A DNA stretch of 64,000 nucleotides from a virus. Each line of letters begins with the position of its first letter. Positions within the stretch are counted from its first letter, which is position 1. The stretch covers positions 36,341-100,340 of the IMG/VR virus record IMGVR_UViG_3300029915_000731; one strand, given 5' to 3'. Positions 22,501 to 64,000 of the stretch are shown here, piece by piece. The notes under the pieces are model-generated. The model did not search any database, was not told the origin of the DNA, and was given only the letters and a program-made list of their open reading frames with translations. The translations under genes and the position numbers were made by a program.

Positions 22501-22629
22501 GTGCTGACGCAGGATTTTACCAGTGTGCAGCAGGACTGCTCTTGGGTCATCTGTGTCGGAAGAGCCACGGCCACCGACACATTCATCTATACACCCCAAC
22601 TACCGAACCGGGTTGTCCTGACGTTCTAG
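19591..22629 (+). CDS. Large virion structural protein
   Basis: 1012 aa, Thr/Ser-rich; C-terminal beta-sandwich (C1q-like) and capsid-cement-like segments; coupled to the spike gene. Confidence 0.55.
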   Translation: MGTIAAAIVNLDSQVMSAVRSLTTATPPSISGSGGPVPLPNELWPIQVQKDINTLRKKLNPMGDPAIEKYYHEALEQGRLCEKSIADAQHWLNQKQALLFKHIQHWLGLNTLAVDGKLSDKPRAVRYTADSLRFLQQINQFQKEIVGLIQAVTTNIGILVSMMNNMVGMIQANLNALAALMAEICNWGLPKIPALPNFFKDTIWHFNGFNFFPLAMFKMPHLSLANFSNFSFAQCNMGLPSSPNGTPAINTLTPPDSMTTQDGLTFGTPLFVPPLGGLTTDAAAASTPAVPLSNTTIPIIDPTVWNADATPMWGAVPDPATIVSAYEMPAAVYSENIVSIVPSLRSNTIESTDSDYSNPNYTTRNAALRVALVENITLANVVASNYDPYITSAWLIYLNTTRTSRLGNWIQNFEVQYATSISPSLVALSNVVPWNNTVSVPTPVLPLVSTLTTMETPAKGNLLWRLSYIEAALLGYTRCQLWDGYADTTYLSGYTGANLDYVASTISSATTTVLLGDGQAEYPVSCTYPSSISGALQQVITMANTNIVNTLDYQSKQPRFRYIYNQFAEAVEVDRFSQFWREFNSNLQSLLAKDPYLVQFVVTYPASLDSAIDPLGSPVIFNNLNADAASRNRTWVPGYSLLNLPIAPPVVYMGDGSDGSNGYTGNASGWNGDLFDPTTFLERPDVQALSIPEQMAMVSTNQTYASLLLAKQDMLDTAVAQITNSQAVLTSLLNMGFKVESSGTTVIPVGSMTTSVVLDVIDYDLTNNATSPTSFTMQAAGSYAVAGQLNWSSGDAGTRTVTVLQNGVAIMTASIDTNTDPIQLPFSTTASVAIGDIITLEASHNLTTAQQITTGSYLTVMQYDPDQSAAQLSTSSSNTLTGTVTFTADAAIPALTAVQVGLDGKVTILNPTVIATDSNGVTLAPLVDGITTAAVAAGGQVSAANAYGGVYQVSGASFTIGGLLYVGSNGVLTQDFTSVQQDCSWVICVGRATATDTFIYTPQLPNRVVLTF

Positions 22630-22658
22630 TTTTACCAATATTGAACTCTAAGTAGAAG

Positions 22659-22694
22659 AACTAAGTGGGTTTAGATATAACCACTTAGTTTTTT
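22659..22694 (+). terminator. Intrinsic terminator
   Basis: AACTAAGTGG...CCACTTAGTT stem followed by a T run, just after the stop at 22629. Confidence 0.6.
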
Positions 22695-22697
22695 CTA

Positions 22698-22727
22698 TGG
22701 ACAAAAGAACCAACACCACCGTAGAAT
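22698..22727 (+). promoter_or_regulatory. Sigma70-like promoter TGGACA-N18-TAGAAT
   Basis: Directly after the terminator and upstream of 22800; same 18-nt spacing as the other early promoters. Confidence 0.5.
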
Positions 22728-22799
22728 TAAGGTATTAGAAGTAGGAAGAAACTACGGTCAAAAGGAGCTATACGAGCACTCAATTCATTTGCAACCAAA

Positions 22800-23402
22800 A
22801 TGAAACCACTCGCTATGAAGAATTCAAAGCTACTTGTAGCCTTACTCATTTCTATTGTCTTTGGGACGACGGTTAGCGTCCTCGTGCATCAAAACCGGAG
22901 CCTCGCCCATCGACTCCACCAAAGAGATACTCAGAGGGACGAGGAACTTACCAGAACCAAAACCGAGTTAGTCCAGACCAAGAAACTCCTCGCACTGGCT
23001 CAACAGAAACTCGGATACCTCGACAAGCATAAGACTGATGTGCAGTTGACAGCATTTACTGCCATGCCCGGAAGTACCCAGTTTGCCAGTGGCCGCTCTA
23101 TCCATCATGCTTACGCTGTACAGAAGCCAGCACTGCCGGGGGATGCTATTGTGAATGTGGCTCTCTCCCCCAGCGCTCGACTCAGGTTGAACGCAAAATT
23201 CAACGACTTGTTGGTGATTACGGATAAGCGGAGCCATCAGAGGACGGTTGCAAGGTTTGTGGATACCACAGTTTCCACTGAGAGCCGCTCAGTCATCGAC
23301 GTTTTCTTTGCCGACCAAAGGACGGCTCAACGATGGGGACGCCGTCACGATTATGTTGCAGTTAACATTTCTGCGGCGGATTCCCCATTTAAAGGGTACT
23401 AG
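22800..23402 (+). CDS. Membrane-anchored 3D-domain (MltA-like) protein
   Basis: N-terminal TM/signal, coiled coil, then LTAFT...ASGR...VALS...DT...IDVFF...AQRWGRR. Confidence 0.65.
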   Translation: MKPLAMKNSKLLVALLISIVFGTTVSVLVHQNRSLAHRLHQRDTQRDEELTRTKTELVQTKKLLALAQQKLGYLDKHKTDVQLTAFTAMPGSTQFASGRSIHHAYAVQKPALPGDAIVNVALSPSARLRLNAKFNDLLVITDKRSHQRTVARFVDTTVSTESRSVIDVFFADQRTAQRWGRRHDYVAVNISAADSPFKGY

Positions 23403-23452
23403 TAGGTTATAATCTCTTCGTTGGTTGAAGAGGGGTCAGGTAGGAGACCAAA

Positions 23453-23698
23453 GTGCGTATCATAATCATGCAGGACGAGCTGTACCTCTATCTTAAGAAC
23501 GTAGTCAAGAACTACGCCAACAGCGGCATTGACCCGGAAGAGGGTCTTGCTCTCTACCACCTTAATCAGGTCGTCAAGAATGCTCAGTCGGTGGATGACT
23601 CACAGGCGGCGAAGGTCGCCATCTCTGAGGACGAGTCAAAGGCGATGGTCAGTGTAGTCCCAGCAGCGGCTGACACTGACCCACAGGGGATCGCTTAA
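23453..23698 (+). CDS. Hypothetical protein
   Basis: 81-aa ORF with AGGAG SD. Confidence 0.6.
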   Translation: MRIIIMQDELYLYLKNVVKNYANSGIDPEEGLALYHLNQVVKNAQSVDDSQAAKVAISEDESKAMVSVVPAAADTDPQGIA

Positions 23699-24474
23699 TC
23701 CAGTAACTTGGTTAGGTCTATAGGGGTTTCATGGACTATACCACGTCTACACGCCACTGCGCCCCTCCTAGAGAGGGCGTCCCAAACGTATTGAGGGTTG
23801 GATAGCACACTCCTCTCGTAAGCGTAATAAAGGAGAAGTCTGGCCATCGGGTCAGTCTGGGTAACTACCTCCCACATACCTGCACATTTTAGGTTGTTGT
23901 TATGAGTGAAATCGAGAACCCCCGTGATGTCAGGGTCTGCCCCGGCTGGTAGCGGTTTGACTTTCCCCCGCGTGTTTTGCATTCCGCCAGATTGATTTAC
24001 TGTATCGAAAAAAAAGGCCTGTACACGGGTGCTGTCAGTGTGGTCTGGGACATACTCAGCGGCCAGTACCTTCGCCCGCTGCAAAATCGTTGTAATTGCC
24101 AACTGTGTCTGAGCTGCAATTGATTCTGGCTGGTTGAGTAGATTCTTCCAGCAAACCTCAGCGGCTGGGTCTACCTGAGTGGAGCCTGCGGCGATGTAGT
24201 GGTCTAGGCACCATTGGATAGCCTCGGCGGGTTTGAGCACCGCGAAGTGGTGAATATCGGAACGGAAGAAAGTCTGCATTTTATCCCACCCCATTAAGGC
24301 GGCGATACTCTGCAATAACTGTTGCAAGGTTCCTTGGCCAGCATTCCACTGTAAAATCCCTGCGCTCAACCCCTGCCCATCACTTGCTCCAGTGAGGCCG
24401 TCATATTTTGGGGTTCCGTTTTCAAACACCCCTGTTACATTCAAGCATATATCCAACATTGTTTTGTCATCCAT
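23695..24474 (-). CDS. Putative endolysin (lysozyme-fold glycoside hydrolase)
   Basis: TGVFENG...DGQGLSAGILQWNAGQGTLQQLL and FFDTVNQSG motifs of lysozyme/chitosanase-like muramidases. Confidence 0.65.
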   Translation of the reverse strand: MDDKTMLDICLNVTGVFENGTPKYDGLTGASDGQGLSAGILQWNAGQGTLQQLLQSIAALMGWDKMQTFFRSDIHHFAVLKPAEAIQWCLDHYIAAGSTQVDPAAEVCWKNLLNQPESIAAQTQLAITTILQRAKVLAAEYVPDHTDSTRVQAFFFDTVNQSGGMQNTRGKVKPLPAGADPDITGVLDFTHNNNLKCAGMWEVVTQTDPMARLLLYYAYERSVLSNPQYVWDALSRRGAVACRRGIVHETPIDLTKLLD

Positions 24475-24491
24475 AACACCCCCCAAATAAG

Positions 24492-25463
24492 TTACCTATT
24501 ACCCTCGTTCAGAAATTTACTTTTCCATCGGTCTTGAGTTTCGGCCCCACCAAACTGTAGTGGCTGTTGCTTCCAAGCTTTGATTCGAGATTCAATTTCA
24601 GGGATGGTAGCTTTGATTCCCCCAATGTCGCGGCGTAGTAGTGCTTGGGCGGTCACAAGAGCCTTTTCAAAGCCGTCCTCGCCCCGTTTGTAGACGCAGG
24701 GGACATCGTGGCTGTAACCGAAACGCTGCTCTTTCTCCCGCTTTGTGCCGTTCACTGAATTCACCTTGCCAGCTTCCATATTAGCGAGGGTTTCTTTGGC
24801 ACGTTGGAGACTGTGCTTCAAGGCGGCGACAAACTCAACAGCCCCCTCGGGCGATAGCTCCCACGCTGTGCATCCAGCCCCGAAGCAGATGCCGTTTCTC
24901 ATACCCCACTTCAGCTCATAGCCATGGGCGACCATCTTCCCATCGAAGGTCAACTTCTGCCGACGCATGCAGACCGGGCATACTCCCGTGTTCTGTTTGT
25001 CACGTTCAATCTGAATCTTTTGTTTGTCGGTGAGGACTGGTGGTTTGCGGCCTTTGACAATGTATGGCTTTGCGTTCTTAACCATCTCAGCTAGGGCTGC
25101 GCCCTCTTCCATCACTTGGAGAACAACGTCGATGTAACCTTCACCCTTAAATTTCTGGAGCTTCTTGACGGCACCCGGAAGATTGTTAAATTGCGGAGTG
25201 TAGATGATACTCCAACGGGGATCAGTGTTATCCCATGTTGGGTGGCCTTCACCCTCGCCGCGACGGATACCCCGCGAGGTCTCTTGTGCATACTCAATGG
25301 CCTCACCTACAACCCGTGAAATGTTCTCCCTAGCGGCCACAAAATCTTGGTTGAAGATTTGCTGGTTGGCGACCCCGGAAGTGAGTGCATTCTTAGCTGC
25401 GGGGAAGTTCTTAGCGTGACGGCTGCTGGCGGCGAAAGCGTCAATCTTGGGTGTTTCAATCAT
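24492..25463 (-). CDS. Hypothetical protein with Zn-binding motif
   Basis: GVCPVC...HGY...CFG; 323 aa. Confidence 0.65.
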   Translation of the reverse strand: MIETPKIDAFAASSRHAKNFPAAKNALTSGVANQQIFNQDFVAARENISRVVGEAIEYAQETSRGIRRGEGEGHPTWDNTDPRWSIIYTPQFNNLPGAVKKLQKFKGEGYIDVVLQVMEEGAALAEMVKNAKPYIVKGRKPPVLTDKQKIQIERDKQNTGVCPVCMRRQKLTFDGKMVAHGYELKWGMRNGICFGAGCTAWELSPEGAVEFVAALKHSLQRAKETLANMEAGKVNSVNGTKREKEQRFGYSHDVPCVYKRGEDGFEKALVTAQALLRRDIGGIKATIPEIESRIKAWKQQPLQFGGAETQDRWKSKFLNEGNR

Positions 25464-25470
25464 GATAATC

Positions 25471-25998
25471 CTATACGGGCACTACTGTTTCAAGGTATAC
25501 CCGGTCTTGGGCGAGGTCTAAATTCACGACGAGAGTACCGTTAATAGCGATAGAGCCAGGATCAGGGTTATAGATGACTGAGATAACGCCGTTAGCATAG
25601 GTCAAACCCCGTGGCTGAAACCCTTGAAGCGTCTGGCTGTACGAGTGGGCGATGCTCCCTAATGCAAAATTGTTGGACAAAGCGTAACTGTCTGAGAGTA
25701 AGGCCAGTAGCCAAAGGTTCAAATTGTGTGATGTTTCATCTAAAACGGCTAAAGAGGTATTTGAAAGTAGGAGGAGTACGGAATTTGGAAACGCCGCACT
25801 ACTTCCTCGATAGCTCCCGAAGGGCTCAGTTGCCCACGAGGCGGAGGCGGGGGTTACTTGGCCGTTGGAATAGAGAAACCCATCAGCGGCGTAGCCATTA
25901 TATGACGGCTGCAACTCAGGGTTGTAAAACACATCATTGTTTTTTTTCTCGATGCTTAGGGTAGCAATGATGCTTTGACTTAGGTAGTTGAATGGCAT
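25471..25998 (-). CDS. Hypothetical protein, possibly structural
   Basis: 175-aa ORF with Ser/Asn/Leu-rich composition like the virion proteins. Confidence 0.6.
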   Translation of the reverse strand: MPFNYLSQSIIATLSIEKKNNDVFYNPELQPSYNGYAADGFLYSNGQVTPASASWATEPFGSYRGSSAAFPNSVLLLLSNTSLAVLDETSHNLNLWLLALLSDSYALSNNFALGSIAHSYSQTLQGFQPRGLTYANGVISVIYNPDPGSIAINGTLVVNLDLAQDRVYLETVVPV

Positions 25999-26175
25999 TT
26001 TGACCTCAAATTTTCCGTGCTCCGCAGTTTTGAATACGTGGACAAGAAATTGGTCAACATATGGTTTTCATCCAATTGCAGGTACCACCTATGAAGCGGT
26101 TAGTCTAAAAACTGAACAAACAATTGCATACCTTTTGACTACCAAACCCATTAAAGAAGACCACAGGACTCATCT

Positions 26176-29100
26176 ATGTCAATCAATTTTCCAAATGTAG
26201 TTTCTAGAACGTTAGACCCATCGGGAAAGTCCCTCCTAACTGTGGTCGGTCTTCATGACCGACAGCTTTCTGATGCCGACCTCAACCTGATTCAATCTCT
26301 TCAGGATTCGAAGCGACAGAAGCTAGTCAGCAACATGGCGACCTCTGGATGTTTGACCTATGCTCCTTTTCAGTTTGTCCCCAGTATCGACAACACGTTC
26401 TTGATTCCCCAATTCGACGTGCTCTTCAACGGTGAAGTCGTCACCATTGCAGGTCACCTGTCGGACGACCCCACCCTCAACCGGGTTGTGATTCCTCAGC
26501 CGACCTCTTGGATAGCGGGTCAGACTTCTGAACCAGCGGCTATATACGTTGTTTTCTTGGAGATGTGGTATCAGAACCTCGACCCATCAACGGGCGAGGG
26601 GTATCTCCTAGACCCCTTTGATTCCACTCAATATTTCTACTACCCCTACGGGTGTGTGAACCCCGATTTGAACTCCGCCATTGCGGGGCCGAATGCCATG
26701 CCGGATGATGCCATCGACATCTTCGACAGCGGTCTTCAGACCACTCAGCGTGCCCAGATTCAGTGGCGTTTCAACGTCCAGCGGGTCGCCCTGACCTATG
26801 ATTTCACCCAGTATAGCTTCGGCCTTCAACCAGGAGCCCGCCCAACTGAGATAGTGTATGCACAAGCTCAGCCACAAGGCGGCTCAACTCCCATCATTGA
26901 TTCTGGATACACGTATTGGAACCAAGGAGATACGAGTTCATCCAACCCTCATTTCACAGGAGATACGGGGCTATGGGCGGCTGGTGATGTCACTCAAGGG
27001 ACAATTAACTCCCTCAACACGTTAGACGGCTTGAGCTATGCCCTCCCGATGGCCATTGTCTGCCAGAAAAACACGGGGAACTTTAATGTTCAGACCAACC
27101 CATTCGGCTGTGGAAATTCATCAAACGCCTCGCTTTCCGGGAGATACGACCAAAAGCTAGCTACTCAGATTTTTGCTGAGGATGTAGTCGATACCCGGCA
27201 GACAGTGAGCCTCAACGGCTGGGACTACGAAGACCTGCTGCGTGGCGGCTTCGTGGATGTCATCTCAGGGAACTGCCGTCTTGCCATCTCTCGCGGTATC
27301 TCACCGGGTATGGATAGTCGGGCGTTGGGTTCGGCTTTGGATTACTATGTTTCGGTGGCTCCTTCAACCTCCCCCGTACTCAACACAGATGAAATTGGAC
27401 AGTGGGACGGCTACGCCAATGGCTTCAGTTCCGATCAACGTACCTTCTATGTTACTCAGCAGGTGACCAAAGCGGGTAACAACCAGACATGGGTGACAGG
27501 GGGTTTCAATCCCGACACGTTCAACTTGAGTTTACCCGGCCAGAGTTCAGCCACCATCTCGTCCGCTGTAGTGCAAGCATTCAACACACAGGGTAACGTG
27601 AAGGTTCCAGTGACTCTACAGCCCGGTCAAATCACCATAACAGGCATAGGGTCTAAGCAGATTACGGTGACCCTATCCTCCCCCCTCACAGGCACCCCGT
27701 TCAATCCTGGAGCCAACCATCTTTACGTCACTTTGGGGGTGCAGTATCCGGCTGCTTTGAGTATGAATCTGAGGAACAGTCCCATTGCAATAGCTGGTGG
27801 CACTCTATCAGATACAGTTTCGAGCAAATACCTCCCGGTGTTCGGAGTATCTGAGTACCTCACTAAGACAACCCCGCCCGTACTTCAGAACGCTCTGTCT
27901 GGGGTGTCGGTAAGTAATGTGGTTTCAATTAACCCCAACTACTCTAACCTCATTTTCGGGACGAGAGTTACGTTGTCTTACTCGGTGGCAGCGGGGATTG
28001 CAGCCGGAAACATCATCACTCAAACTGTCAACAAGGCAACCACAACCACCTTTGTATTTGACCGCACCGGGGCTGGCTATGGCATCTACAGCTCTCCTAC
28101 TGGGGGTCAAGGAATCAATGGGCTCTATGTAATCAATTGCTGGGATGCAAGTACGGGCACAAATATCCCCTACACTATTACCTCACAACTTCTGAACGGG
28201 ACGAACTGCTTGGTTACTGTTTCAGGGGCTGTAACTGTGGGCGCTCAGCCGATGTTTACCTTCTTGGCTCAGGACACAACGCAACTCGTTTACAACGCTC
28301 CAGTCGGGGGAGTAACCGCGATTGAGGAGGTAGTTCTCTTCGGTACGTATACCAGCGACCCCACTCTTACCATGGAGCAGCGAATTGTTAAAGAATCGGT
28401 ATCGCTTGACTCTACGGGAGCTACCCCTGTTACTACAATGGTTTTTGCGGCGAATGGCTGTACGATAAAAGGCATCGCCGGAAACGATGTCAGTAAGTTG
28501 ATTTGGGTGAAAGACAACGTCGGAAACCTCAACTCCGTGCCCGTAGCGAGTGCCAATTTCACCAACGGTTTGGTGACGGTCACCATTAACGGTGACTACT
28601 ACACCTCCTCGCCCCAATTTTTCTTTGTAGGCTCTATCCTCCCCGCTCTCTCGCCAACTTCGACCTTGGTGTTACAGGAGCGGTACGTTCCCTATCAAGG
28701 TGAGGGCACCACTACCCACCAATACGATGTTCTGTTGACGGGCGATTCAGCTCTGATTACCACAAATGGGACAGGCAAGGCCCCTGTGGTCGGACTGGCC
28801 GATGTATACCCATACAATCGCGAGATTCCAATCTCCACAACCCTTCCGTGCCAATTGGCTTGGAAAGACGCCACTTTGACTAACGCCGCCGTGGCCAGCT
28901 TCTTTGACTCGAACTATGAGGCGATGCGGCAGAACAACGTAGAGCACACTTTTGAAGCACCATTGCACACGAACGACTTCATCCCCCCGATGAACAAAGA
29001 CACCCGCAAGCAGGTTCAATTACTGTCTTCCGGCGGCGGGCGCGGCTTTTCTCAAGCTACGCCTCATCTTGGTTTTGCTATCCGCCCATTGGTATCACGT

Positions 29101-49992: not shown

Positions 49993-51150
49993 CGGATTTA
50001 ATGAGCGCAATCCCAGACTTTAGTCTGGGTTAGCGAATGCCTTTAGGCGGTATTAGACATTATGCTTCAATACCAACTCAAACTTCGACCTTGCAGGGCG
50101 CAAGAGCAAACCTGCGACCAGTGGCTCTACCATCTGGCGTCAGTCTACAACTTTGCCGTCCGCAAGATAGAGCTAAACGCCAAGGATAAAATCTACTTTT
50201 CCAAAAACGATTTCCAAAACATCTTGGCGAATCACGGCGCGAAGCTGGGAATACCAAGCCATACGATTCAGGGTGTGCTGTGCACCGTCTTTGATGCGTG
50301 GAAGCGATGTTTCAAGAAAATTGGGGGCAAGCCACGTCTTAAAGGAATGCGGAACAAACTCACCAGCATTCCGTTCCCTGACCCTATCAAGGCTCCGAAA
50401 GGCAACCGCATTACGCTTCCGGGCCTAGGCAGTGTACGCTTCCACAAGCAGGAAATCCCGGAGGGAAAGATCAAGTGCGGGCGTCTAGTCAAAAGAGCTT
50501 CGGGATGGTATCTGTGCCTCTTTATCGACGCGCAGCCGAAGGTCATCGAGCGGTTAGCGTTTGGTCAGATTGGTATAGACCCCGGATTCTCCCACTTGCT
50601 GACTACTTCGGATGGGGAAGTCATCGAACATCCGCGAGAGTTAGAAGCAGCAGCACAACGTCTTGCACAAGCACAAAGAGGGCACGACAAGAAGTTGGCA
50701 GCACGGATTCAGGAGCGCATTGCCAACCGCAAAAAAGACAGAAACCACAAGATTACAACGAAGTTGGTGTCGGAGAATGCGCTCATAGTTTGGAGCAAGG
50801 ACAATCACCGAGGTATAGCAAAGAGATTTGGGAAGAGCGTGAGCAGTTCGGCGCACGCACAGATTCGACAACAACTGTCCTACAAGATGCCCATAAGCGG
50901 TGGGACGTTTATCGAAGTTGCTTCCAAGGATTCCACCAAGACTTGTAATCAATGCGGGAGCCCATTTGGTCCTTCAGGGTTTGCAGGATTGTCGGTAAGG
51001 CAATGGCGATGTTCTGCCTGTGGAGCAGATCACGACCGTGATGTCAATGCGGCTCGTAACACGCTATTCGCCGGGGCAGGATGTGCCCACGAGGAGTTGG
51101 CTTATGTCTAACTCAGACAGGAATCCCAGAGCTTGCTCTGGGAGCATCAA
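49993..51150 (+). mobile_element. IS200/IS605-family non-autonomous element (tnpB only)
   Basis: Left hairpin CCCAGACT-TT-AGTCTGGG (50012-50029); right hairpin CCCAGAGC-TT-GCTCTGGG ending ...GCATCAA at 51150; no tnpA. Left boundary approximate. Confidence 0.75.
50062..51111 (+). CDS. tnpB: TnpB RNA-guided endonuclease-family protein
   Basis: N-terminal HTH (YQLKLRP...VYN), RuvC-I IGIDPG, Zn finger CNQCG...CSACG, RuvC-III HDRDVNAARN. Confidence 0.9.
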   Translation: MLQYQLKLRPCRAQEQTCDQWLYHLASVYNFAVRKIELNAKDKIYFSKNDFQNILANHGAKLGIPSHTIQGVLCTVFDAWKRCFKKIGGKPRLKGMRNKLTSIPFPDPIKAPKGNRITLPGLGSVRFHKQEIPEGKIKCGRLVKRASGWYLCLFIDAQPKVIERLAFGQIGIDPGFSHLLTTSDGEVIEHPRELEAAAQRLAQAQRGHDKKLAARIQERIANRKKDRNHKITTKLVSENALIVWSKDNHRGIAKRFGKSVSSSAHAQIRQQLSYKMPISGGTFIEVASKDSTKTCNQCGSPFGPSGFAGLSVRQWRCSACGADHDRDVNAARNTLFAGAGCAHEELAYV

Positions 51151-56001: not shown

Positions 56002-58278
56002 ATGAAGAACCCCCTATTAAAGACTGCCACACCCCGCCGTCCCCAATGGGAGCCGTGGAGTACCGACACTGATTTTTTGGCTGAGCTGGCTCGTTATCAA
56101 CAACCTATGCTTACTCAGCCTACCGGGGATTCCCAGTCTCGCATAAACGCTAATCCTCAGAATTCTTTTGGTGCCAAACACAACGTCAAGAAGTGGCTGA
56201 CGACGGCCTCCCTGTTGCAGAAAAAAGTAGCAGGGGTGCCCCCCTTTAACCCTGAAGAGCTGTGTAAGTGCGACCACCCGCGCAAAGGACATAACATGTT
56301 TGGGTGCCAGTACCGCAGAAAGGATTCCAACACGATGTGCGGGTGCTCCGGGTTTCGTCCTAATAAGCCGGGAAACCCGGAGACTGGGCCTTGGCACCCC
56401 ACAGAGGAAGAGCAACTTGCAGAGTGTGTGCATTGCGGACAGGACGCCACAACGGTATGCCCAGAGTGCGACTCTACCTTCTGCAAAAAGTGCTGGCCTC
56501 GGCACTACAAGGATAGTCCCGAGTGTTTGGTCTATCAGCCGGGTCAACCCCTCGACCCTAATAAGAAAGCGTTCAAAGGGATAAGAGAACAGAATGAATT
56601 GGCAGAGAGGTTCCGTAGAAAGCATGACAGGTTTCCCACCGAAGCCGAGTTTAGTGAGATGGAAAATGCGATGGCAAGAAAAAAGCCGAATACCCTCTCT
56701 CTAGACCAGCGGAATGAGTTGCTATCCAAAGGCTACTCCCGCGATACCCTCGACGCCATACCTCAAGGGGACACATACACTCAATCGGAGTTGGCAGTAC
56801 AACGAGGCCGTAGGAAACACCAGTCTCCACCTAATATGTCCCCCGCGAGCCCAGCGCAACCCGCCGTGACCTGTCCGAGGTGCGGCCATTCGATTAAGGC
56901 AAAAGACACCTATTGTAAGGCTTGTGGTGTGACTTTGAAAAAAGCCCCGGCACCAGCAGCTCCTACCCCGGCACCAGCAGAAGCGGCACCCGCTGTGGCT
57001 CAAAAAGCTCGTATCGACGCGGTGACTAAAAACGACCTGCTCACACTCGGATACCACTTTGATGATTTCTCCAATATGACACAGGATGAGGTTGACAAAA
57101 TCCTGAAAGAGGGGATTTTTGCGGGTGGAAGGAGACCACTCAGAACGAGTAGCCTCGCCGAGAAACTTGGGTGGAAGAAGGTACAAGGTGGGTATAAGCA
57201 CCCGAAGCTGGGCTCCCTTGCTGTCAAAGGTAAGGCGTGGCAGCTACAGCAGGGGGGTAAGGTTGTGGCTTCAGGTAGCAGTGACACCAGTTGGAGGGTC
57301 GCCGCTCGTAAGCTGGCACGTGAGAACAAGCCCCCCATGCCCTACCACACCCCATCGGGTGAGTGTCAGTGTGAGAACAACCACGGTGAGCATGATGACC
57401 ACTCCTGCCCGAATGGTGCGTGCAACATTGTGGAGACCACCTATGGCAACTTCGATATGTGCTACGACTGCGCCCAAGCCGTGTCCCCAGAATTCCTAAA
57501 GGGGCATCAGCAGCAGTGGGTATTGAAGCGGGATGGGACTATTGTTCTCGGTCCTTGCACGGACATAGAAATTACACAGTACATTCACCGGAATCACTCC
57601 TACTCCATGTCGCACGCTCTCGCTCATGAGGGCTACTCTATTGCGAAAGCACAACCCGGAGACGCGGTGGGCAACCCGACCTTCAGCAAAGACGACCAAG
57701 AGATGATGAAACGGATGGGGATTCAGGCAAATAAGGCTTGGAAGATGAGACCCCCGACTGGTGATGCACCGAAGCTGTTGAAAGAGCGGATCGGCAAAAC
57801 TGAGTGGCACAGCCACGACATGAGCCTAGCTCAGCACCACCCTAAGTGTCAATGTGCCCGATGTGAACCCATGGGTCGTCCGTGCGATTGTAAGCACTGT
57901 CGTGCCCTTCGTGTATCTCAGGGGAAGAGGGCGGGTTGGCAGAATCCACTCCTAAAAAAAGCTGACGAGACAGCACTGGCTCGTGTCTCGAAGATGGAAA
58001 CAGTAGGTCGCCAGATGGTAGAAAAGCTTCGCGAGGAGAATTCGAGGAAGCGCAACTCCATGCCAGAAGGTTTCGACTTTGTCGGCCCCGCTGTGAGCTG
58101 TAGCGATTGGCTCACTGCTATGCTGAGAAGCATCCCGAACCTCATGTCGATGAACATCGACTATGATTTGCTCCTCAAAGAACTAGGCAAGGTCTGGGAG
58201 AAGGTCAAACCCGGTGACGATGAAGAGATTCCTGAACCCCCAGCCAAGATGGACAGCCCACTGATTGTTGGAGAGTAG
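56002..58278 (+). CDS. Multidomain Cys/His-rich protein (several Zn-finger modules)
   Basis: Multiple CxC/CxxC clusters separated by low-complexity linkers; NPLLKTA and NPLLKKA motifs. Confidence 0.75.
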   Translation: MKNPLLKTATPRRPQWEPWSTDTDFLAELARYQQPMLTQPTGDSQSRINANPQNSFGAKHNVKKWLTTASLLQKKVAGVPPFNPEELCKCDHPRKGHNMFGCQYRRKDSNTMCGCSGFRPNKPGNPETGPWHPTEEEQLAECVHCGQDATTVCPECDSTFCKKCWPRHYKDSPECLVYQPGQPLDPNKKAFKGIREQNELAERFRRKHDRFPTEAEFSEMENAMARKKPNTLSLDQRNELLSKGYSRDTLDAIPQGDTYTQSELAVQRGRRKHQSPPNMSPASPAQPAVTCPRCGHSIKAKDTYCKACGVTLKKAPAPAAPTPAPAEAAPAVAQKARIDAVTKNDLLTLGYHFDDFSNMTQDEVDKILKEGIFAGGRRPLRTSSLAEKLGWKKVQGGYKHPKLGSLAVKGKAWQLQQGGKVVASGSSDTSWRVAARKLARENKPPMPYHTPSGECQCENNHGEHDDHSCPNGACNIVETTYGNFDMCYDCAQAVSPEFLKGHQQQWVLKRDGTIVLGPCTDIEITQYIHRNHSYSMSHALAHEGYSIAKAQPGDAVGNPTFSKDDQEMMKRMGIQANKAWKMRPPTGDAPKLLKERIGKTEWHSHDMSLAQHHPKCQCARCEPMGRPCDCKHCRALRVSQGKRAGWQNPLLKKADETALARVSKMETVGRQMVEKLREENSRKRNSMPEGFDFVGPAVSCSDWLTAMLRSIPNLMSMNIDYDLLLKELGKVWEKVKPGDDEEIPEPPAKMDSPLIVGE

Positions 58279-58280
58279 CT

Positions 58281-59036
58281 GTGTTTAAATCTAGATTTCT
58301 GAATAAGGTAGCTGCCGACGAACTGAGCACCCTCCAAGCTAAGCTGGATAAGGTACGAATTCAGGCCGATGAAAACGAGGAGCGGACTGAGCTGGCTTGG
58401 ACGGCGGCTGGAAAAGAGGCGGAACGACTGGGGTTGCGGTCTGTTGCTGCGTTAAGGGCTCAGGAGCCCACTAATCAATTTGTGAAAAACCTCGATGCGT
58501 TGCAGAAGGCGTGGAAGACCCTCGACATAGAGAGGTACCATCTTGAGGGAGAGGTTCGAGCTGCAAAGGTGCCATCGGTACCCCATATCATCAACCCAAA
58601 GGAAATTAAACAACTGGTTGACAAGGCCACTATCTTGGTCACACGGGGCGGCAAAGTCTACGCCTATCCAGACTATGACCCGGACAGCGAACACTACACG
58701 CACTCAAGTCTGTTCAATCAGGTACACTCGGAGCTGGAGACTGAAGAGACCGGGGACTACGTGAAAGTCGATGATGTCCGCCCCAGCCAGTTTCTTGATA
58801 TTGGGGGTATAACGGCGTTTTCGGAAGGCAACGATTCAGCCTCCATCCGCATCGGCCTCCGCGCCCCAGATGTTATTTCTCGCGTACTCGATTTAATGGA
58901 GTACCTCAATCGGGGAACCATTGAGTTTGAGTACGAGAATACAGATGACCAGAAAGACAGATTCTACACTATAGGGCCACAGAACCGGGTTCGCCAAGAG
59001 CTGCGTAACTGGCGGGATGAGCTAGATGAAGTATAA
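58281..59036 (+). CDS. Hypothetical protein
   Basis: 251 aa, GTG start behind GGAG; begins MFKSRFLNKVAA. Confidence 0.7.
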   Translation: MFKSRFLNKVAADELSTLQAKLDKVRIQADENEERTELAWTAAGKEAERLGLRSVAALRAQEPTNQFVKNLDALQKAWKTLDIERYHLEGEVRAAKVPSVPHIINPKEIKQLVDKATILVTRGGKVYAYPDYDPDSEHYTHSSLFNQVHSELETEETGDYVKVDDVRPSQFLDIGGITAFSEGNDSASIRIGLRAPDVISRVLDLMEYLNRGTIEFEYENTDDQKDRFYTIGPQNRVRQELRNWRDELDEV

Positions 59037-59376
59037 CCTAGAACAACACGACAGTAGCTGGTACCTCATGGGGCTCCCGGAAGACCTAGCCCTCTCCAGT
59101 GATGGGGAGGGGGTTGAGTTCGAAGAGCCCCCTGAGCCTGAGCCCAACACGTGGCTTTGGATTCCCCGCTTCCATGACAGGCTGGACTTCTTCGAGGGAG
59201 TCTACGCTGCCCTCTACACGAAAATCCACCGCAATCTGGCCATCCGTGAGGGCGACATCTTCTCCACCCCAGTTGGTCAGCTCGTCTACAAGAATAGCGA
59301 CCTCTTCCCGTTTGATGAAACAGCCGAAGAATACTATACCAAAATCCAGGGGGCCGTGGCTGTATCAGAGGTGTAG
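59026..59376 (+). CDS. Hypothetical acidic protein (gene X)
   Basis: 116 aa; its 3' end has a degenerate paralog at 63282-63363. Confidence 0.65.
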   Translation: MKYNLEQHDSSWYLMGLPEDLALSSDGEGVEFEEPPEPEPNTWLWIPRFHDRLDFFEGVYAALYTKIHRNLAIREGDIFSTPVGQLVYKNSDLFPFDETAEEYYTKIQGAVAVSEV

Positions 59377-59447
59377 CTCAGCCAAGACCTGTGTAAACCA
59401 AGTCCCTGCTGCTTTCAAATGCATCCAGTGGGAGCGAGGGGCAGTGA
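59351..59447 (+). pseudogene. 5' fragment of a SAM-methyltransferase paralog
   Basis: GPWLYQRCSSAKTCVNQVPAAFKCIQW aligns with GPWMYQQYTSAMTCVNQVPATFKTIDW of the gene at 63374. Confidence 0.8.
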
Positions 59448-59600
59448 GTTCATCTGCCTATCTTGTGGGCATCGGGATAATGCAGACCACAATGGAGCAA
59501 TCAACATCTTGGGACGGAGCGTCCCACTAGACGTTAACGTGAGCGGAGTAACGCTGTGCGTAGTCTAGGAATCCACCCCATTCATGGGGTGGAGGTTCAA
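59446..59600 (+). mobile_element. Truncated tnpB 3' end with omegaRNA scaffold and IS200/IS605 right end
   Basis: Frame EFICLSCGHRDNADHNGAINILG...stop 59568 (Zn finger/RuvC-III); CTAGAC...GTCTAG stem; hairpin CCACCCCAT-TC-ATGGGGTGG; ends GGTTCAA at 59600. Confidence 0.85.
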
Positions 59601-59700
59601 GTTCGACAGTTGCGATGGTGTCGTTGTTCGACGGTTACGATGGTGTCGTTGTTCAAACGGTTCCGACGTTTTTACGTTCGACGGTTACGATGGTGTCGTT
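59601..59700 (+). repeat. 25-nt periodic repeat (three near-identical units plus one degenerate)
   Basis: 59626-59650 and 59676-59700 are GTTCGACGGTTACGATGGTGTCGTT; 59601-59625 has 2 mismatches; 59651-59675 is degenerate. Confidence 0.9.
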
Positions 59701-60174
59701 GTGAGCCGCACCGTGCGTAACGAGAAGTATCTCTTTGAGTTCGTACCCTCGTGTCAAGCCGAAGCCCATAGAGTTCCAGCCGAAGCAAATGGCGATACCG
59801 CCCGGTTTGAGCATTCTATCGAGGCCGTCTTTCACCCGCTTGTAGAGCCGCCCGTTTTGAGTGTCCTGTGTACCACACTTCCGTCCAATTTGCTGATAGC
59901 ATTCGGAAATTTGTCTGGGACTATAAGGCGGGTCGAAAAGCACCACGTCGGCACTAACAATAACCTGCTCTACAAAATCCTCGGCAAGCATGTGATATTG
60001 AGCAGTCGTGGCGGGGTTGAGGTCATTCGTCACCGTACCCCTAGTGGAGTTTCTGGCAAAGGGGTCAACAATTACTTGCCCTTCAGTGAGCCATCTGTCA
60101 AGTAACCGCTTGACCGGGGGCAGAGAGAACGTCTCCGCGTTGCCCATCGCAAACTCACGGTTCCATGAAATCAT
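59653..60174 (-). CDS. Small DNA adenine methyltransferase
   Basis: VDPFARNS (SAM-binding) and LFDPPY (amino-MTase catalytic motif). Confidence 0.75.
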   Translation of the reverse strand: MISWNREFAMGNAETFSLPPVKRLLDRWLTEGQVIVDPFARNSTRGTVTNDLNPATTAQYHMLAEDFVEQVIVSADVVLFDPPYSPRQISECYQQIGRKCGTQDTQNGRLYKRVKDGLDRMLKPGGIAICFGWNSMGFGLTRGYELKEILLVTHGAAHNDTIVTVERKNVGTV

Positions 60175-60985
60175 ACTTTCGCTTTAGCTGCTGATTGACA
60201 TGACCGAGGTCACCCAACTTAATATACGGTATTTGTTGGACTCCGAGTTGAGACGCGGCGTGGATACGGTGCCGACCATCAGCAATATGCCCCTTTTCAT
60301 CCACGATTGCCGGGGGCATACGCTCTCCCTGTTGCATGGACTTCTTCATCTCATCCACATGGGGTTGCCCCCGGTTATCTCCAGCATCATCCCCCAGTCC
60401 CCAACCAGATATGTGCTTCATAGCGGTAGCGGTGGGCATCAGGTACACTGAAATGGGCGCGTCCCAATCAGGGTCGTCTTCGACCGGGGGTTCCATTGCT
60501 TCCGCCAAGTCGCTTACTAATTGAACAAAGTCGGGAAAATCACCCTCTAGGGAGCTAAGAACGACGGAGCCAACTGCTGGATGAGCCCAGTCACAACCAT
60601 TCTGCAAGTCTGCGGTCTTCTTCAAAAACTTAGATTCAAACCCCGTTTTGCCTTTCCCTCGCAGAGCAATCAACTCATCTTTGCCGCTGGCAAACTTGCC
60701 CTTCTTCTTAGAGTAGGGGGTTGGAATCTCAATCCCTCGCTTGAACATCCCGTAGTCGAGGACGGAGCTGAGGCTCTTCCCATGCCCCACCAGCCAGAAG
60801 GTGCCAAAGTCGGCGTACCAATCCTTGCGGGGTGCCATCTGGGGCTCAGCGCACCATTTGCGGCACACCACGACGCCCTCAAGGTTGTAGACCCGTTGCT
60901 TGAGGCGAAGTATGATGTGAGCCATGATGTGCTCAGGAACTTGGGTAAAATTAATCGGGCAGGAGAATACCGGGAGGGACGGCAT
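60155..60985 (-). CDS. Two-domain protein with C-terminal ParB/Srx-like domain
   Basis: PPAIVD...DGRHRIHAASQLG; linker FESKFLKKTA. Confidence 0.7.
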   Translation of the reverse strand: MPSLPVFSCPINFTQVPEHIMAHIILRLKQRVYNLEGVVVCRKWCAEPQMAPRKDWYADFGTFWLVGHGKSLSSVLDYGMFKRGIEIPTPYSKKKGKFASGKDELIALRGKGKTGFESKFLKKTADLQNGCDWAHPAVGSVVLSSLEGDFPDFVQLVSDLAEAMEPPVEDDPDWDAPISVYLMPTATAMKHISGWGLGDDAGDNRGQPHVDEMKKSMQQGERMPPAIVDEKGHIADGRHRIHAASQLGVQQIPYIKLGDLGHVNQQLKRKYDFMEP

Positions 60986-62039: not shown

Positions 62040-62385
62040 ATCGGTAGGGGGAGCTTTTGGCTCCCCCATCCTAGCGACTGCGGGGCCGAAGCCCTGCTTG
62101 ATTTATAAGGGGTGTCACACCCCTCACGCTTCGCTTATTACTAAGCAGCAGCGGCCATAGCAAATTCATTGGCAGTTACTATTTTGCATGTCCGTTTAAC
62201 GAGAGCCATACAAACTCGGGTCGTCAGCAAATCCAGCACCAAATACCGTCGAATCTTTGACGAGCCCAAATAGGCGATTCAAGCCTAAGACTACCACTGC
62301 ATAATTTGGTGGACTCGGGGACATATGCTAGTCCCGTCCGATAATCAATGTAGACGCATCATCTCTTTCGAGGGGCACGACCATA
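62040..62385 (-). ncRNA. ssrA: tmRNA gene, circularly permuted (two-piece)
   Basis: Acceptor piece ends CGAGTCC-ACCA at 62307; coding piece starts GGGCTCG...GATTCGAC at 62267; 7-bp acceptor stem with G3.U70; pseudoknot 1; tag ORF ANEFAMAAAA at 62173-62144 then TAG TAA TAA. Outer ends approximate. Confidence 0.9.
62047..62067 (-). terminator. Terminator-like hairpin after the tmRNA
   Basis: GGGGGAGC-caaaa-GCTCCCCC followed shortly by a T run on the minus strand. Confidence 0.6.
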
Positions 62386-62465: not shown

Positions 62466-63206
62466 ATGGCCCTCTACACTGTCTACAAAACAATCGACAC
62501 CCGAAATGAACACTACTACCTTGGCGTGCATAAAACCGCTAACCCCAACGATTCCTATTATGGGTCGGGCACCATTATCCGTAACCTCCTCGCCAAACAC
62601 GGGGAAGGCATTCTCCGAAAAGAAATTTTGTTCATCTACCCAACTGGAGAAGAAGCGTATGCCAAAGAGGATGAGTTGGTCGTGGTCTTTATCAACGACC
62701 CCCTCTGTTACAACCTGAGAAAAGGGGGACTCGGGGGGTTTGACTATATAAATAGAAATGGGTTACACAGGAGAGCACTTCCAGAAGTTGAAGCTGAAAA
62801 TGGAAAGCGGCTACAAAAATGGAGAGTGGGATTATCTCCCGAAGAACGACTTAAACTGAGCAGAGATGCGAATGCCCACTGGAGAGGAAAACACCACTCC
62901 CCCTCCTCGCTTGAAAAACTAAGTGCGGCTAGAAAAGGAAACAACAGTAGACAAGGGACTCGTTGGGTATACAACCTGAAATCAGGTCAAAAACGGCTAG
63001 TACCCGCCGATGAGGTAGACAGTCTCATTACGGAGGAGTGGGTGACCGGAAAGCTGAAAAAGAATAAATCTGCATCCAACTACGGGAAGCTGTGGATAAA
63101 TAACGGAACCATCAATAAGCTCATCAAACCCGCTGAATTAGCAGATTACACCGGGTGGGTGCGGGGTAGGCTCGACCCGTTTCAGCGTCATAACCGCTCT
63201 GTGTGA
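62466..63206 (+). CDS. Free-standing GIY-YIG (Seg-like) homing endonuclease
   Basis: YTVYKT...YYLGVH...YYGSG...E...YNL catalytic domain; NUMOD3-like GKHHS...KLSAARKG and WxxNG repeats. Confidence 0.85.
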   Translation: MALYTVYKTIDTRNEHYYLGVHKTANPNDSYYGSGTIIRNLLAKHGEGILRKEILFIYPTGEEAYAKEDELVVVFINDPLCYNLRKGGLGGFDYINRNGLHRRALPEVEAENGKRLQKWRVGLSPEERLKLSRDANAHWRGKHHSPSSLEKLSAARKGNNSRQGTRWVYNLKSGQKRLVPADEVDSLITEEWVTGKLKKNKSASNYGKLWINNGTINKLIKPAELADYTGWVRGRLDPFQRHNRSV

Positions 63207-63281
63207 GGATACGCGACTATCATTTTGCCCTTTATGGCAGCATCCGGGAACACCGCGTGAACTTCCTCCAAATAGGTGTAA
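63188..63281 (-). pseudogene. 3' fragment of a SAM-methyltransferase paralog
   Basis: TYLEEVHAVFPDAAIKGKMI aligns with TYLSEVQKVFPDAILSGRVI of the gene at 63374. Confidence 0.7.
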
Positions 63282-63363
63282 AAACTCATCTTCAAAGGCG
63301 GCGACCTTCTTCCCTTCGATGAAAAATCCAAAAATACTATACCCAAGTTCAGGATTCTGAGTA
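63282..63363 (+). pseudogene. Degenerate 3' fragment of a gene X paralog
   Basis: KLIFKGGDLLPFDEKS(frameshift)YYTQVQ versus QLVYKNSDLFPFDETAEEYYTKIQ in 59026-59376. Confidence 0.7.
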
Positions 63364-63373
63364 ATAATGGGGT

Positions 63374-64000
63374 ATGACCTCTACCAACTACTCTGGGCCT
63401 TGGATGTATCAACAGTACACCTCGGCCATGACATGCGTGAACCAAGTTCCAGCCACATTCAAGACTATCGACTGGGTGCCCGGAACTGTGAACCTTGACT
63501 ATGGTGGGGGAAGGTTTGAGACAGCCACGAAATACCTGAGGGCACATAGTGTCACCAACCTAGTCTACGACCCCTATAACCGCTCTGATGAGCATAACGC
63601 GGCTGTCCTAGCCTTGTTGTTGAACGTAAAGGCAGACACCGCAACCTTGTGCAATGTCCTCAACGTCATCAAAGAGTGGCAGATGCGGCAGCAGGTTCTC
63701 AGGAATATTCACGGTCTAGTCAAGCCGGGTGGGCTCATCTACATTAGTTGCTACCGTGGCCGGGATACCGAACCCTCGGTGACTAGCCACGGTTGGCAGG
63801 AGAATCGTCCTCCGGTCACCTATTTGTCTGAGGTACAAAAGGTATTCCCAGATGCGATACTCAGTGGTAGGGTGATCTACGGGAGAAACCTGCCGCTGGT
63901 CAACAAAACTGGTCACGACTTGTTCGTACAGGCAATAGGTGATCTCATCGCTGCCCACGCACCCTCCAGCGAGTACGAGAGTGCAGAAGAGTTCTTGGCA
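63374..64000 (+). CDS. Class I SAM-dependent methyltransferase; runs off the right edge
   Basis: Absent from the ORF track. Hand translation MTSTNYSGPW...LDYGGGRF...YDPYN...NVLNVI...VKPGG, open to the window end. Confidence 0.8.
   Translation, partial: MTSTNYSGPWMYQQYTSAMTCVNQVPATFKTIDWVPGTVNLDYGGGRFETATKYLRAHSVTNLVYDPYNRSDEHNAAVLALLLNVKADTATLCNVLNVIKEWQMRQQVLRNIHGLVKPGGLIYISCYRGRDTEPSVTSHGWQENRPPVTYLSEVQKVFPDAILSGRVIYGRNLPLVNKTGHDLFVQAIGDLIAAHAPSSEYESAEEFLA

Follow-up and report, generated by a model that had tools for sequence, protein, structure and literature searches.

Why does the DNA just outside the right end of a broken transposon, i.e., at the place from which a TnpB nuclease takes its guide, repeat the end of a neighbouring gene of the phage that carries it? 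The question is raised by a stretch of 64,000 nucleotides (nt), called here the window, which is the last 64 kb of the 100,340-bp IMG/VR virus record IMGVR_UViG_3300029915_000731. According to CheckV the completeness of this record is 32%; at such a length, it is thus a piece of a very large (huge) peat phage. In the window, the 3' stump of a tnpB gene, which in intact relatives codes for the scaffold of a guide RNA (omegaRNA), lies beside the 3' end of a DNA methyltransferase (MTase) gene. It is argued here that the stump is probably the relic of an insertion of an IS605-family element at the 3' end of the phage MTase gene, that the match between the guide position and the gene is a by-product of insertion and duplication, and that the stump is most likely functionless. 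An earlier note on this DNA had seen in it an orphan omegaRNA pointing at the gene, either shaped by self-targeting or kept for another use. The positions of the features are collected in Table 1.

The stump ends the coding sequence of a TnpB. The open reading frame (ORF) 59419-59568 (plus strand) matches positions 39-60 of the 60 positions of the Pfam profile PF07282 (E 9.5e-7), i.e., the zinc-finger and RuvC-III region of TnpB/Cas12f. A word search for longer protein relatives gave six TnpBs of 306-363 residues having 76-88% identity over the last 41 residues, and residues 323-363 of the full-length relative P0001 align by tblastn to 59443-59565 at 88%. Relative loci were collected from genomes (19), IMG/VR (6) and metagenomes (80). 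The comparison of 59446-59600 with these loci by blastn gave 62 matches; over all 155 nt, the identity reaches 91.6% for the locus L090 and 87.1% for L065. In the alignments, the DNA homology of the family begins at 59446 and ends at 59600, so that the remnant, given as about 155 nt in the earlier note, measures exactly 155 nt. Its last 105 nt are identical to those of L090, a relative in which the TnpB (P0001) is intact. No similarity was found in GenBank phages, and the exact right-end pattern is absent from IMG/VR.

When the right ends of 46 relatives are aligned to their last bases, 41 of them terminate in TCAA, 3 in TCGA and 2 in TCAC, and the flanks diverge beyond. Since the sequences of the relatives share nothing past this terminal tetranucleotide, the alignment places the end of the element at 59600, where the earlier note had put it. 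The stem of the hairpin that precedes this end shows compensatory changes among relatives. Two traits of the IS605 group are thus found together, i.e., the coding sequence of a TnpB C-terminus and a right end with a hairpin and a terminal tetranucleotide. These comparisons identify 59446-59600 as the right end, coding for the guide RNA, of a tnpB element of the IS200/IS605 type; the same identity, proposed in the earlier note, is borne out by the PF07282 match, by the tblastn alignment of P0001 and by the covariance-model match described below.

The omegaRNA scaffold can be recognized by several properties of the family. The fraction of the majority base at third codon positions, calculated for 35 relatives, is about 0.54-0.75 in most of tnpB and rises to 0.91-0.94 in the last ~128 nt. 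RNAalifold, applied to 41 sequences, gives three 3' stems; compensatory changes are seen in a GGCUC/GAGCC stem, which is GGGAC/GUCCC in the window and in L090, as well as in the terminal hairpin. The three consensus stems are retained in the stump, as is the 10-bp hairpin, so that the stems are indeed intact, as had been claimed. RNAalifold also gives a possible long-range stem (alignment columns 64-76 with 163-174), in which one pair shows compensatory changes; its 5' strand would lie outside the stump. A covariance model of 140 positions (R1), built from 40 relatives with the window left out, has a single match in the window at 59461-59600 (153.8 bits, E 5.8e-40, model positions 1-140 of 140), and the stump is also its only match in the whole 100-kb record. 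The most constrained ~128 nt of the family RNA are contained in the stump. Rfam, used at gathering thresholds, gave no match at the stump.

The sequence that stands at the guide position belongs to a tandem array. Tandem Repeats Finder detects a period of 25 nt and 4.1 copies at 59601-59702 (72% matches), an array that follows TCAA without any gap. Units 2 and 4 are identical over 27 nt. Within the 64-kb window, the only other occurrences of the 20-mer of 59601 are at 59626 (after GTCGTT) and at 59676 (after TTTTAC), each with 2 mismatches; no further site with 4 mismatches or fewer is found there. These results agree with the earlier note as regards the match of the guide with the end of the gene, the mismatches at positions 8 and 12, the TTTAC in front of the site and the second copy devoid of TTAC. 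The homology of the guide flank with the 3' end of the MTase gene had thus been correctly seen, while the tandem arrangement of the copies had been missed. Of 20,000 shuffles, 73 resemble unit 4 as closely as the degenerate unit 3 does, against none of 450 other 25-mers of the gene; the present tail of the MTase (VGTV and stop, beside IVTVE) may, on this likeness, be the product of an older duplication of 25 nt. It is possible that the 25-nt unit was duplicated more than once at this locus. The array is not CRISPR-like, which would call for constant repeats that alternate with unique spacers: spacers are absent, and a single sequence is repeated head to tail in the four 25-nt units.

Short repeats beside the end of a multi-copy transposon are a classic trouble spot of assembly, and the contigs of the two runs that were compared, X1 and X2, both break within the stump. 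The tandem copies could then be an artefact of read mis-assembly. However, the X1 contig (59465-59933) crosses the right end, all four array units and the gene, and the X2 contig (59605-60400, after a hole at 59481-59604) crosses the array from its fifth base (59605), each with zero differences from the window. It must be noticed that X1 is possibly the source sample of the record. More generally, at least 45% of the sampled words of 59200-59900 are present in each of 14 peat-metagenome runs, of which X1 and X2 alone were confirmed; the region is also found in part in RNA libraries. Besides, the identical stretch of 27 nt is shorter than the 31-letter words that the assembler is assumed to use. 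An assembly artefact, which the earlier note had named among the possible refutations, is hardly credible.

The MTase gene itself has no Pfam match at E ≤ 0.01, its assignment coming from PHROGs (Table 1). In IMG/VR, 55 related methyltransferase loci were found. An NDTIVTVE-like motif, with V, C or I in the fifth place, is present in all 55 homologues, and their C-terminal tails are short and highly variable. This variability suggests that the replacement of the last seven residues of the MTase may be tolerated; if so, a rescue of the gene need not have been selected. The gene upstream of the MTase gene (60155-60985) ends in a ParB-like domain.

IS608 ends in TCAA on the right and inserts 3' of TTAC. 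In the family of the stump, 26 distinct left-end junctions were compared. In 21 of them the flanks diverge at a point immediately 5' of TTAT; CC..GAGCGTAAAA and a hairpin come next, and the left-end guide ends in AAAA; in three others (L060, L079, L080) TTAC is found, with AAAG instead of AAAA before the hairpin. According to a preprint, the target-adjacent motif (TAM) of IS608-type elements pairs with the left-end DNA guide (PMC10055086), and the AAAG/TTAC and AAAA/TTAT junctions fit this pairing rule. The two closest relatives of the stump, L065 and L090, have lost their left ends. The locus L177 is a transposon-free allele of L090, 99-99.8% identical to it on both sides: it reads CACTTAC directly followed by CGGTGG, L090 joins TCAA to CGGTGG exactly, and homology resumes at the base that follows TCAA. 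No empty site was found for L065. Because the empty site in L177 reads TTAC, the lineage nearest to the stump is, by this comparison, one that inserts 3' of TTAC, and the rule that the earlier note had borrowed from IS608 holds for the closest relative.

The stump having lost its own left end, TTAC would be its target motif by analogy with this lineage. The TTAC that precedes the native unit 4 is what an insertion at the MTase sequence predicts; it arises from the codons CGT AAA of a conserved RK in the MTase, the ERK codons being, like unit 4, native. The same motif is found in the phage of locus L170, with an MTase 48% identical, which has ATTTAC and the same 22 nt, without transposon, i.e., 27 nt (TTTAC and target) in common with the window. 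A footprint of gene conversion or homing was considered for these 27 nt and rejected: L170 was found by means of that very pattern, and L041 shares a run of 26 nt at another conserved motif.

The following sequence of events can be proposed. An IS605-family element, composed of the Y1 transposase gene tnpA and of the RNA-guided nuclease gene tnpB, would have inserted directly 3' of TTAC, at the edge of one of the 25-nt units that belong to the coding 3' end of the MTase gene. The insertion at an MTase-derived unit would make the DNA after TCAA, i.e., the guide position, a copy of an MTase segment. The extra copies would come from a local tandem duplication of 25 nt. Unequal exchange or replication slippage would account for it well, given that the units begin with GTTCGA or GTTCAA and that GT or GTTC is common to the joints. 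Two paths may be considered: (i) slippage would first have made extra units past the stop codon, the element landing afterwards at a unit boundary ending in TTAC; (ii) the element would have landed within the gene, and unequal exchange or slippage would have re-created an intact gene end to its right. The microhomology favours the second path, since GT occurs at both joints and GTTC is common to the unit starts and the TCAA end. Finally, a later illegitimate rearrangement would have joined 59446 to the fragment of another gene, at the cost of tnpA, of the left end and of about 88% of tnpB.

Relatives with the ancestral junction were searched for. L005 and L006 (MTase 77% and 71% identical, respectively) have other downstream genes, the ORF 59026-59376 has no relative in IMG/VR, and the 55-kb record of L084 is devoid of both this ORF and the MTase gene. 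No relative with the ancestral state was found, so that the order of duplication, insertion and deletion could not be recovered from them. A tandem duplication of the flank as a trait of the family was rejected: none of 44 relatives has a second copy of its own flank nearby, and the match between guide and target is therefore a local accident. It is firm that the insertion took place 3' of TTAC before such a unit and that all that lay left of 59446 was lost later; as to the lack of function and the order of events, we infer what is most likely.

The loss of the left side can be read at the joint. The region 59351-59449 resembles 63395-63493 by tblastx (64% over 33 residues, E 3.6e-12), and 59303-59350 resembles 63308-63353 by blastn (81%, 48 nt). 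Since 59351-59446 matches another gene and not tnpB, the left border of the stump is, on these matches, an illegitimate joint produced by a larger rearrangement. Two other explanations were rejected: (i) 59377-59445 is not a degenerate tnpB, in which «SAKTC» would recall the TSQxC motif, being a fragment of the paralogue of the 63374 ORF, with tnpB homology only from 59446; (ii) a single inversion of 3.8 kb does not account for the joint: the paralogy is real, but the N- and C-terminal fragments are non-contiguous in the paralogue and the gene would not be restored. The tail of the ORF 59026-59376 and the first ~33 codons of the paralogue of the 63374 ORF recur at 63308-63493, and the C-terminal piece of the paralogue is inverted at 63188-63282.

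No left-end motif (hairpin and DNA guide) is found anywhere in the window, and no tnpA lies beside the stump, the record having been searched for tnpB and scaffold and not with a tnpA profile. The stump is incapable of transposition. The left end is also lost in the three copies of the element found in a phage context (L090:1518-2894, L065:2481-3624, L084:2443-3660); in L090, tnpA lost its 3' portion at the same time, as did the phage 944 nt of its own DNA that are present in the sister allele L177. Loss of the left side may be a recurrent fate of these elements, or a way to fix the nuclease in phages.

Table 1. Positions in the window of the stump, the array, the MTase gene and the other features discussed.
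Feature	Position	Strand	Remarks
N-terminal fragment, paralogue of the 63374 ORF; left joint of the stump	59351-59446	+	detected by tblastx
3' stump of tnpB, IS605 family	59446-59600	+	last 41 codons of tnpB, stop codon and right end; omegaRNA scaffold-coding part in intact relatives
Subterminal hairpin of the right end	59572-59593	+	10-bp stem, 59572-59581/59584-59593, loop of 2 nt; GGAAT before, GGTTCAA after
TCAA, right-end cleavage motif	59597-59600	+	last four bases of the element, from the ends of relatives and the L090/L177 junction
Array unit 1, guide position	59601-59625	+	copy of the MTase 3' coding end; transitions at 8 (G to A) and 12 (A to G)
Array unit 2	59626-59650	+	identical to the native unit 4; preceded by GTCGTT, hence no TTAC
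Array unit 3, degenerate	59651-59675	+	minus strand: MTase tail RKNVGTV and stop (59653-59655); TTAC (59672-59675) at its end
Array unit 4, native MTase coding	59676-59702 (unit 59676-59700)	+	minus strand: NDTIVTVE; directly 3' of TTAC
DNA methyltransferase gene	59653-60174	-	173 residues, DPPY motif; phrog_11619 «DNA methyltransferase», E 3.1e-40
Full-length tnpB, the only one in the record	50062-51141	+	different TnpB lineage, 26% identity to P0001

Several observations weigh against an inert relic: (i) what is left in the stump is precisely the part of the scaffold under the strongest constraint, with 105 nt identical to an intact relative and without decay, and such an undecayed core would also be the outcome expected from retention; (ii) 2 of the 25 nt of the guide copy are changed, against 0 of 105 nt in the scaffold core with reference to L090 (Fisher test, p = 0.036), which hints at non-neutral change; (iii) contigs from the RNA libraries of one study, X15 (59253-59490) and X16 (59350-59576), cover 59253-59576, and the stump may be transcribed; (iv) a cognate tnpB could lie in the unsequenced rest of the genome, of which 32% is in hand, or in a co-infecting phage, and phages of the L090 type carry a tnpB with the same scaffold core; (v) units 1 and 2 may have arisen by more than one pathway. 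As regards point (iii), these contigs show neither the strand, nor the ends, nor the RNA template, and their ends fall where multi-copy transposon sequence would be expected to break an assembly; they leave 59577-60400 uncovered, and uncovered parts are no evidence either way.

The first two points bear on the proposal that selection shaped the locus. Now that TTAC is confirmed as the motif, it can be said that an element still intact, and whose guide was unmutated, would have met a perfectly matching target in the genome that carried it. An active tnpB with the guide GTTCGACGGTTACGATGGTG would then have cut the TTAC-flanked MTase gene of its own carrier, and the survivors would be those that lost tnpB and mutated the guide at positions 8 and 12, which we take to lie in the seed. 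The native unit is indeed a genuine target, TTAC being the true motif of the closest relative; tnpB is deleted; unit 1 is the sole changed copy, with two transitions against none in units 2 and 4, in line with the difference between guide and scaffold core given above. Moreover, the Ala encoded by the guide version is found in none of the 55 MTase homologues, so that the change arose in a non-coding copy. On the other hand, two substitutions are a very small sample, the deletion of tnpB alone ends the conflict without any selected change in the guide, and the loss of tnpB belongs to a larger rearrangement. TnpB is described as strict on the TAM and permissive of mismatches between guide and target by Meers et al. 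(2023 preprint, PMC10055086), in which case two mismatches may fail to protect. Thus, of this proposal of the earlier note, the insertion at the 3' end of the MTase gene is plausible and the conflict by self-targeting is weakly supported. As an account of the locus it is unlikely, and selection against self-targeting is a possible refinement of the relic reading, not a finding.

The other points bear on the use of the RNA in trans. An orphan omegaRNA, made by read-through from the plus-strand genes upstream, would be taken up by a TnpB of its own family. The source of this TnpB would be the two thirds of the genome that are unsequenced, a co-infecting phage of the L090 or L084 type, or the host; the RNA would direct cutting or binding at the 3' ends of the MTase genes of competitors. 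The complete scaffold core, identical over 105 nt to that of L090 with its intact P0001 TnpB, is in line with this, as are the phage contigs L084, L090 and L065, which carry full-length tnpB genes of the family of the stump, the RNA-library contigs over 59253-59576, and the MTase gene of L170, which has TTTAC and a 20-nt match to the array consensus. PATE-type elements are also thought, according to the same preprint (Meers et al., PMC10055086), to supply omegaRNAs to TnpB in trans. The L084 phage deserves a few words: it is a related huge phage, syntenic with 20377-26604 of the window at 45-58% amino acid identity, and its tnpB (L084:2501-3586, in a 55-kb record, with no recognisable left end and no tnpA) sits between homologues of the window ORFs 19591-22629 and 22800-23402, the corresponding site of the window being empty.

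The search for a partner was nevertheless negative. With P0001 and R1, no cognate TnpB and no second copy of the scaffold were found in the 100-kb record, i.e., in 32% of the genome; the known part of the genome holds no cognate nuclease. P0001 has two matches in the record, the stump and the 50062 gene. The TnpB of the latter was rejected as a partner of the stump: its identity to P0001 is low (Table 1), the 3' RNA region of its gene gives no match with R1 at E ≤ 10, and the invariant RuvC-II glutamate of the family, E257, aligns by BLASTP to its Ser245. The 50062-51141 element is a full one, bounded by a hairpin on each side: AATCCCAGAC..GTCTGGGTT at the left end, and AATCCCAGAGC..GCTCTGGGAG followed by CATCAA at the right end.

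The guide version (NDTIATVE) is rejected as a natural rival allele, being encoded by none of the 55 homologues; the scan of IMG/VR for the guide or its consensus gave one allele only, that of L170, which matches the consensus and not the guide. The guide thus mismatches L170 as much as the MTase gene of its own genome. Just one host-like metagenome-assembled genome is named, that of L065; among 121 genomes sampled from its family, the scaffold was found in 2. In addition, the 5' strand of the possible long-range stem would be missing from the stump, no promoter-like or terminator-like site was found beside it, and the RNA-library contigs are no proof of transcription. What the earlier note had proposed to look for, namely a cognate full-length tnpB elsewhere in the genome (at least in the part in hand) and a competing phage allele matching the guide perfectly behind TTAC (in IMG/VR and among the 55 homologues), did not appear, the 50062 TnpB that it had suggested for assays is rejected as user of the RNA, and its proposal of a use in trans is unsupported; such a use is improbable.

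Read-through of the plus strand could, lastly, give an RNA which covers the stump and the array and is complementary to the 3' end of the MTase mRNA, thus modulating it. The plus-strand genes of 56002-59376 converge with the minus-strand MTase gene with no terminator-like site between them, and the RNA-library contigs extend to 59576. None of these contigs lies over the array or the 3' end of the gene, where, as said, a lack of coverage has no weight; but the same antisense RNA is expected of any convergent pair of genes and nothing links it to the stump. An antisense role is very improbable, and a relic without function is retained as the probable reading.

The comparison of the stump with known systems leads to the following remarks: (i) it resembles IS608 and the IS605 group by its right end, with a subterminal hairpin after GAAT and a TCAA terminus, by the insertion of its family directly 3' of TTAC/TTAT, matching the left-end guide AAAG/AAAA, with no target duplication, and by the tnpA (151 residues) that its relatives carry divergently from tnpB; it differs in that only the last 155 nt are present, with no left end, tnpA or intact tnpB, and is no longer an element; (ii) as in the omegaRNA (reRNA) of ISDra2 and of the Geobacillus ISGst elements, the scaffold is shared between the right end and the 3' end of tnpB, with the guide just outside, a likeness seen in the jump of synonymous-site conservation, the covarying stems and the R1 match; but the stump has no nuclease gene, its omegaRNA is a predicted one, and at a distance of 75 nt its guide has a match in the same genome, a situation avoided by intact elements (0 of 44); (iii) like PATEs, i.e., protein-less IS200/IS605 derivatives which can encode omegaRNAs, the stump is devoid of tnpB and holds a scaffold-coding right end; unlike them, it has no left end and is fused to a gene fragment, PATEs having retained their two ends and being open to mobilisation in trans; (iv) TldR are nuclease-dead TnpB-like repressors with guide RNAs (10.64898/2026.09.22.753285); as with TldR, the guide of the stump is aimed at a resident gene and not at an empty donor site, but no TldR-type partner of the right family was found, and the match is at a coding 3' end and not at a promoter.

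The locus is therefore of a known kind, the decayed ends of IS200/IS605 elements, and is unusual only in its self-matching flank. In a limited search of the literature, no description of a scaffold relic devoid of left end and with a self-matching guide was found. A PATE-like arrangement also occurs among the collected loci: L151:2455-2922 (the same in L152 and L153) is protein-less and has both ends, i.e., a left end, the last third of tnpB and a right end.

The interest of the locus is that of a natural record: it keeps the trace of an IS605-family element that inserted at its target motif within the 3' end of a gene of a phage, of the loss of the left side, seen also in three phage-borne relatives, and of a guide position that matches the genome of its carrier, a situation from which intact elements of the family are absent. 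The TnpB family of the stump circulates among huge peat phages, often without left end. The stump is also a cheap test system for the guide mismatches tolerated by TnpB at a real self-target and for the loading in trans of scaffold-only relics. If the use in trans were true, the guide would be directed against the conserved, TTAC-flanked 3' end of the MTase genes of rivals, the two mismatches limiting self-damage; such a system would amount to an RNA-guided counterpart of intron-less homing or of superinfection exclusion between huge phages, and a new kind of weapon of phage against phage, to which the evidence given here lends no support.

Elsewhere in the window, 62141-62363 (minus strand) matches the permuted tmRNA of Rfam (RF04321) with 49.7 bits, the gathering score being 47.

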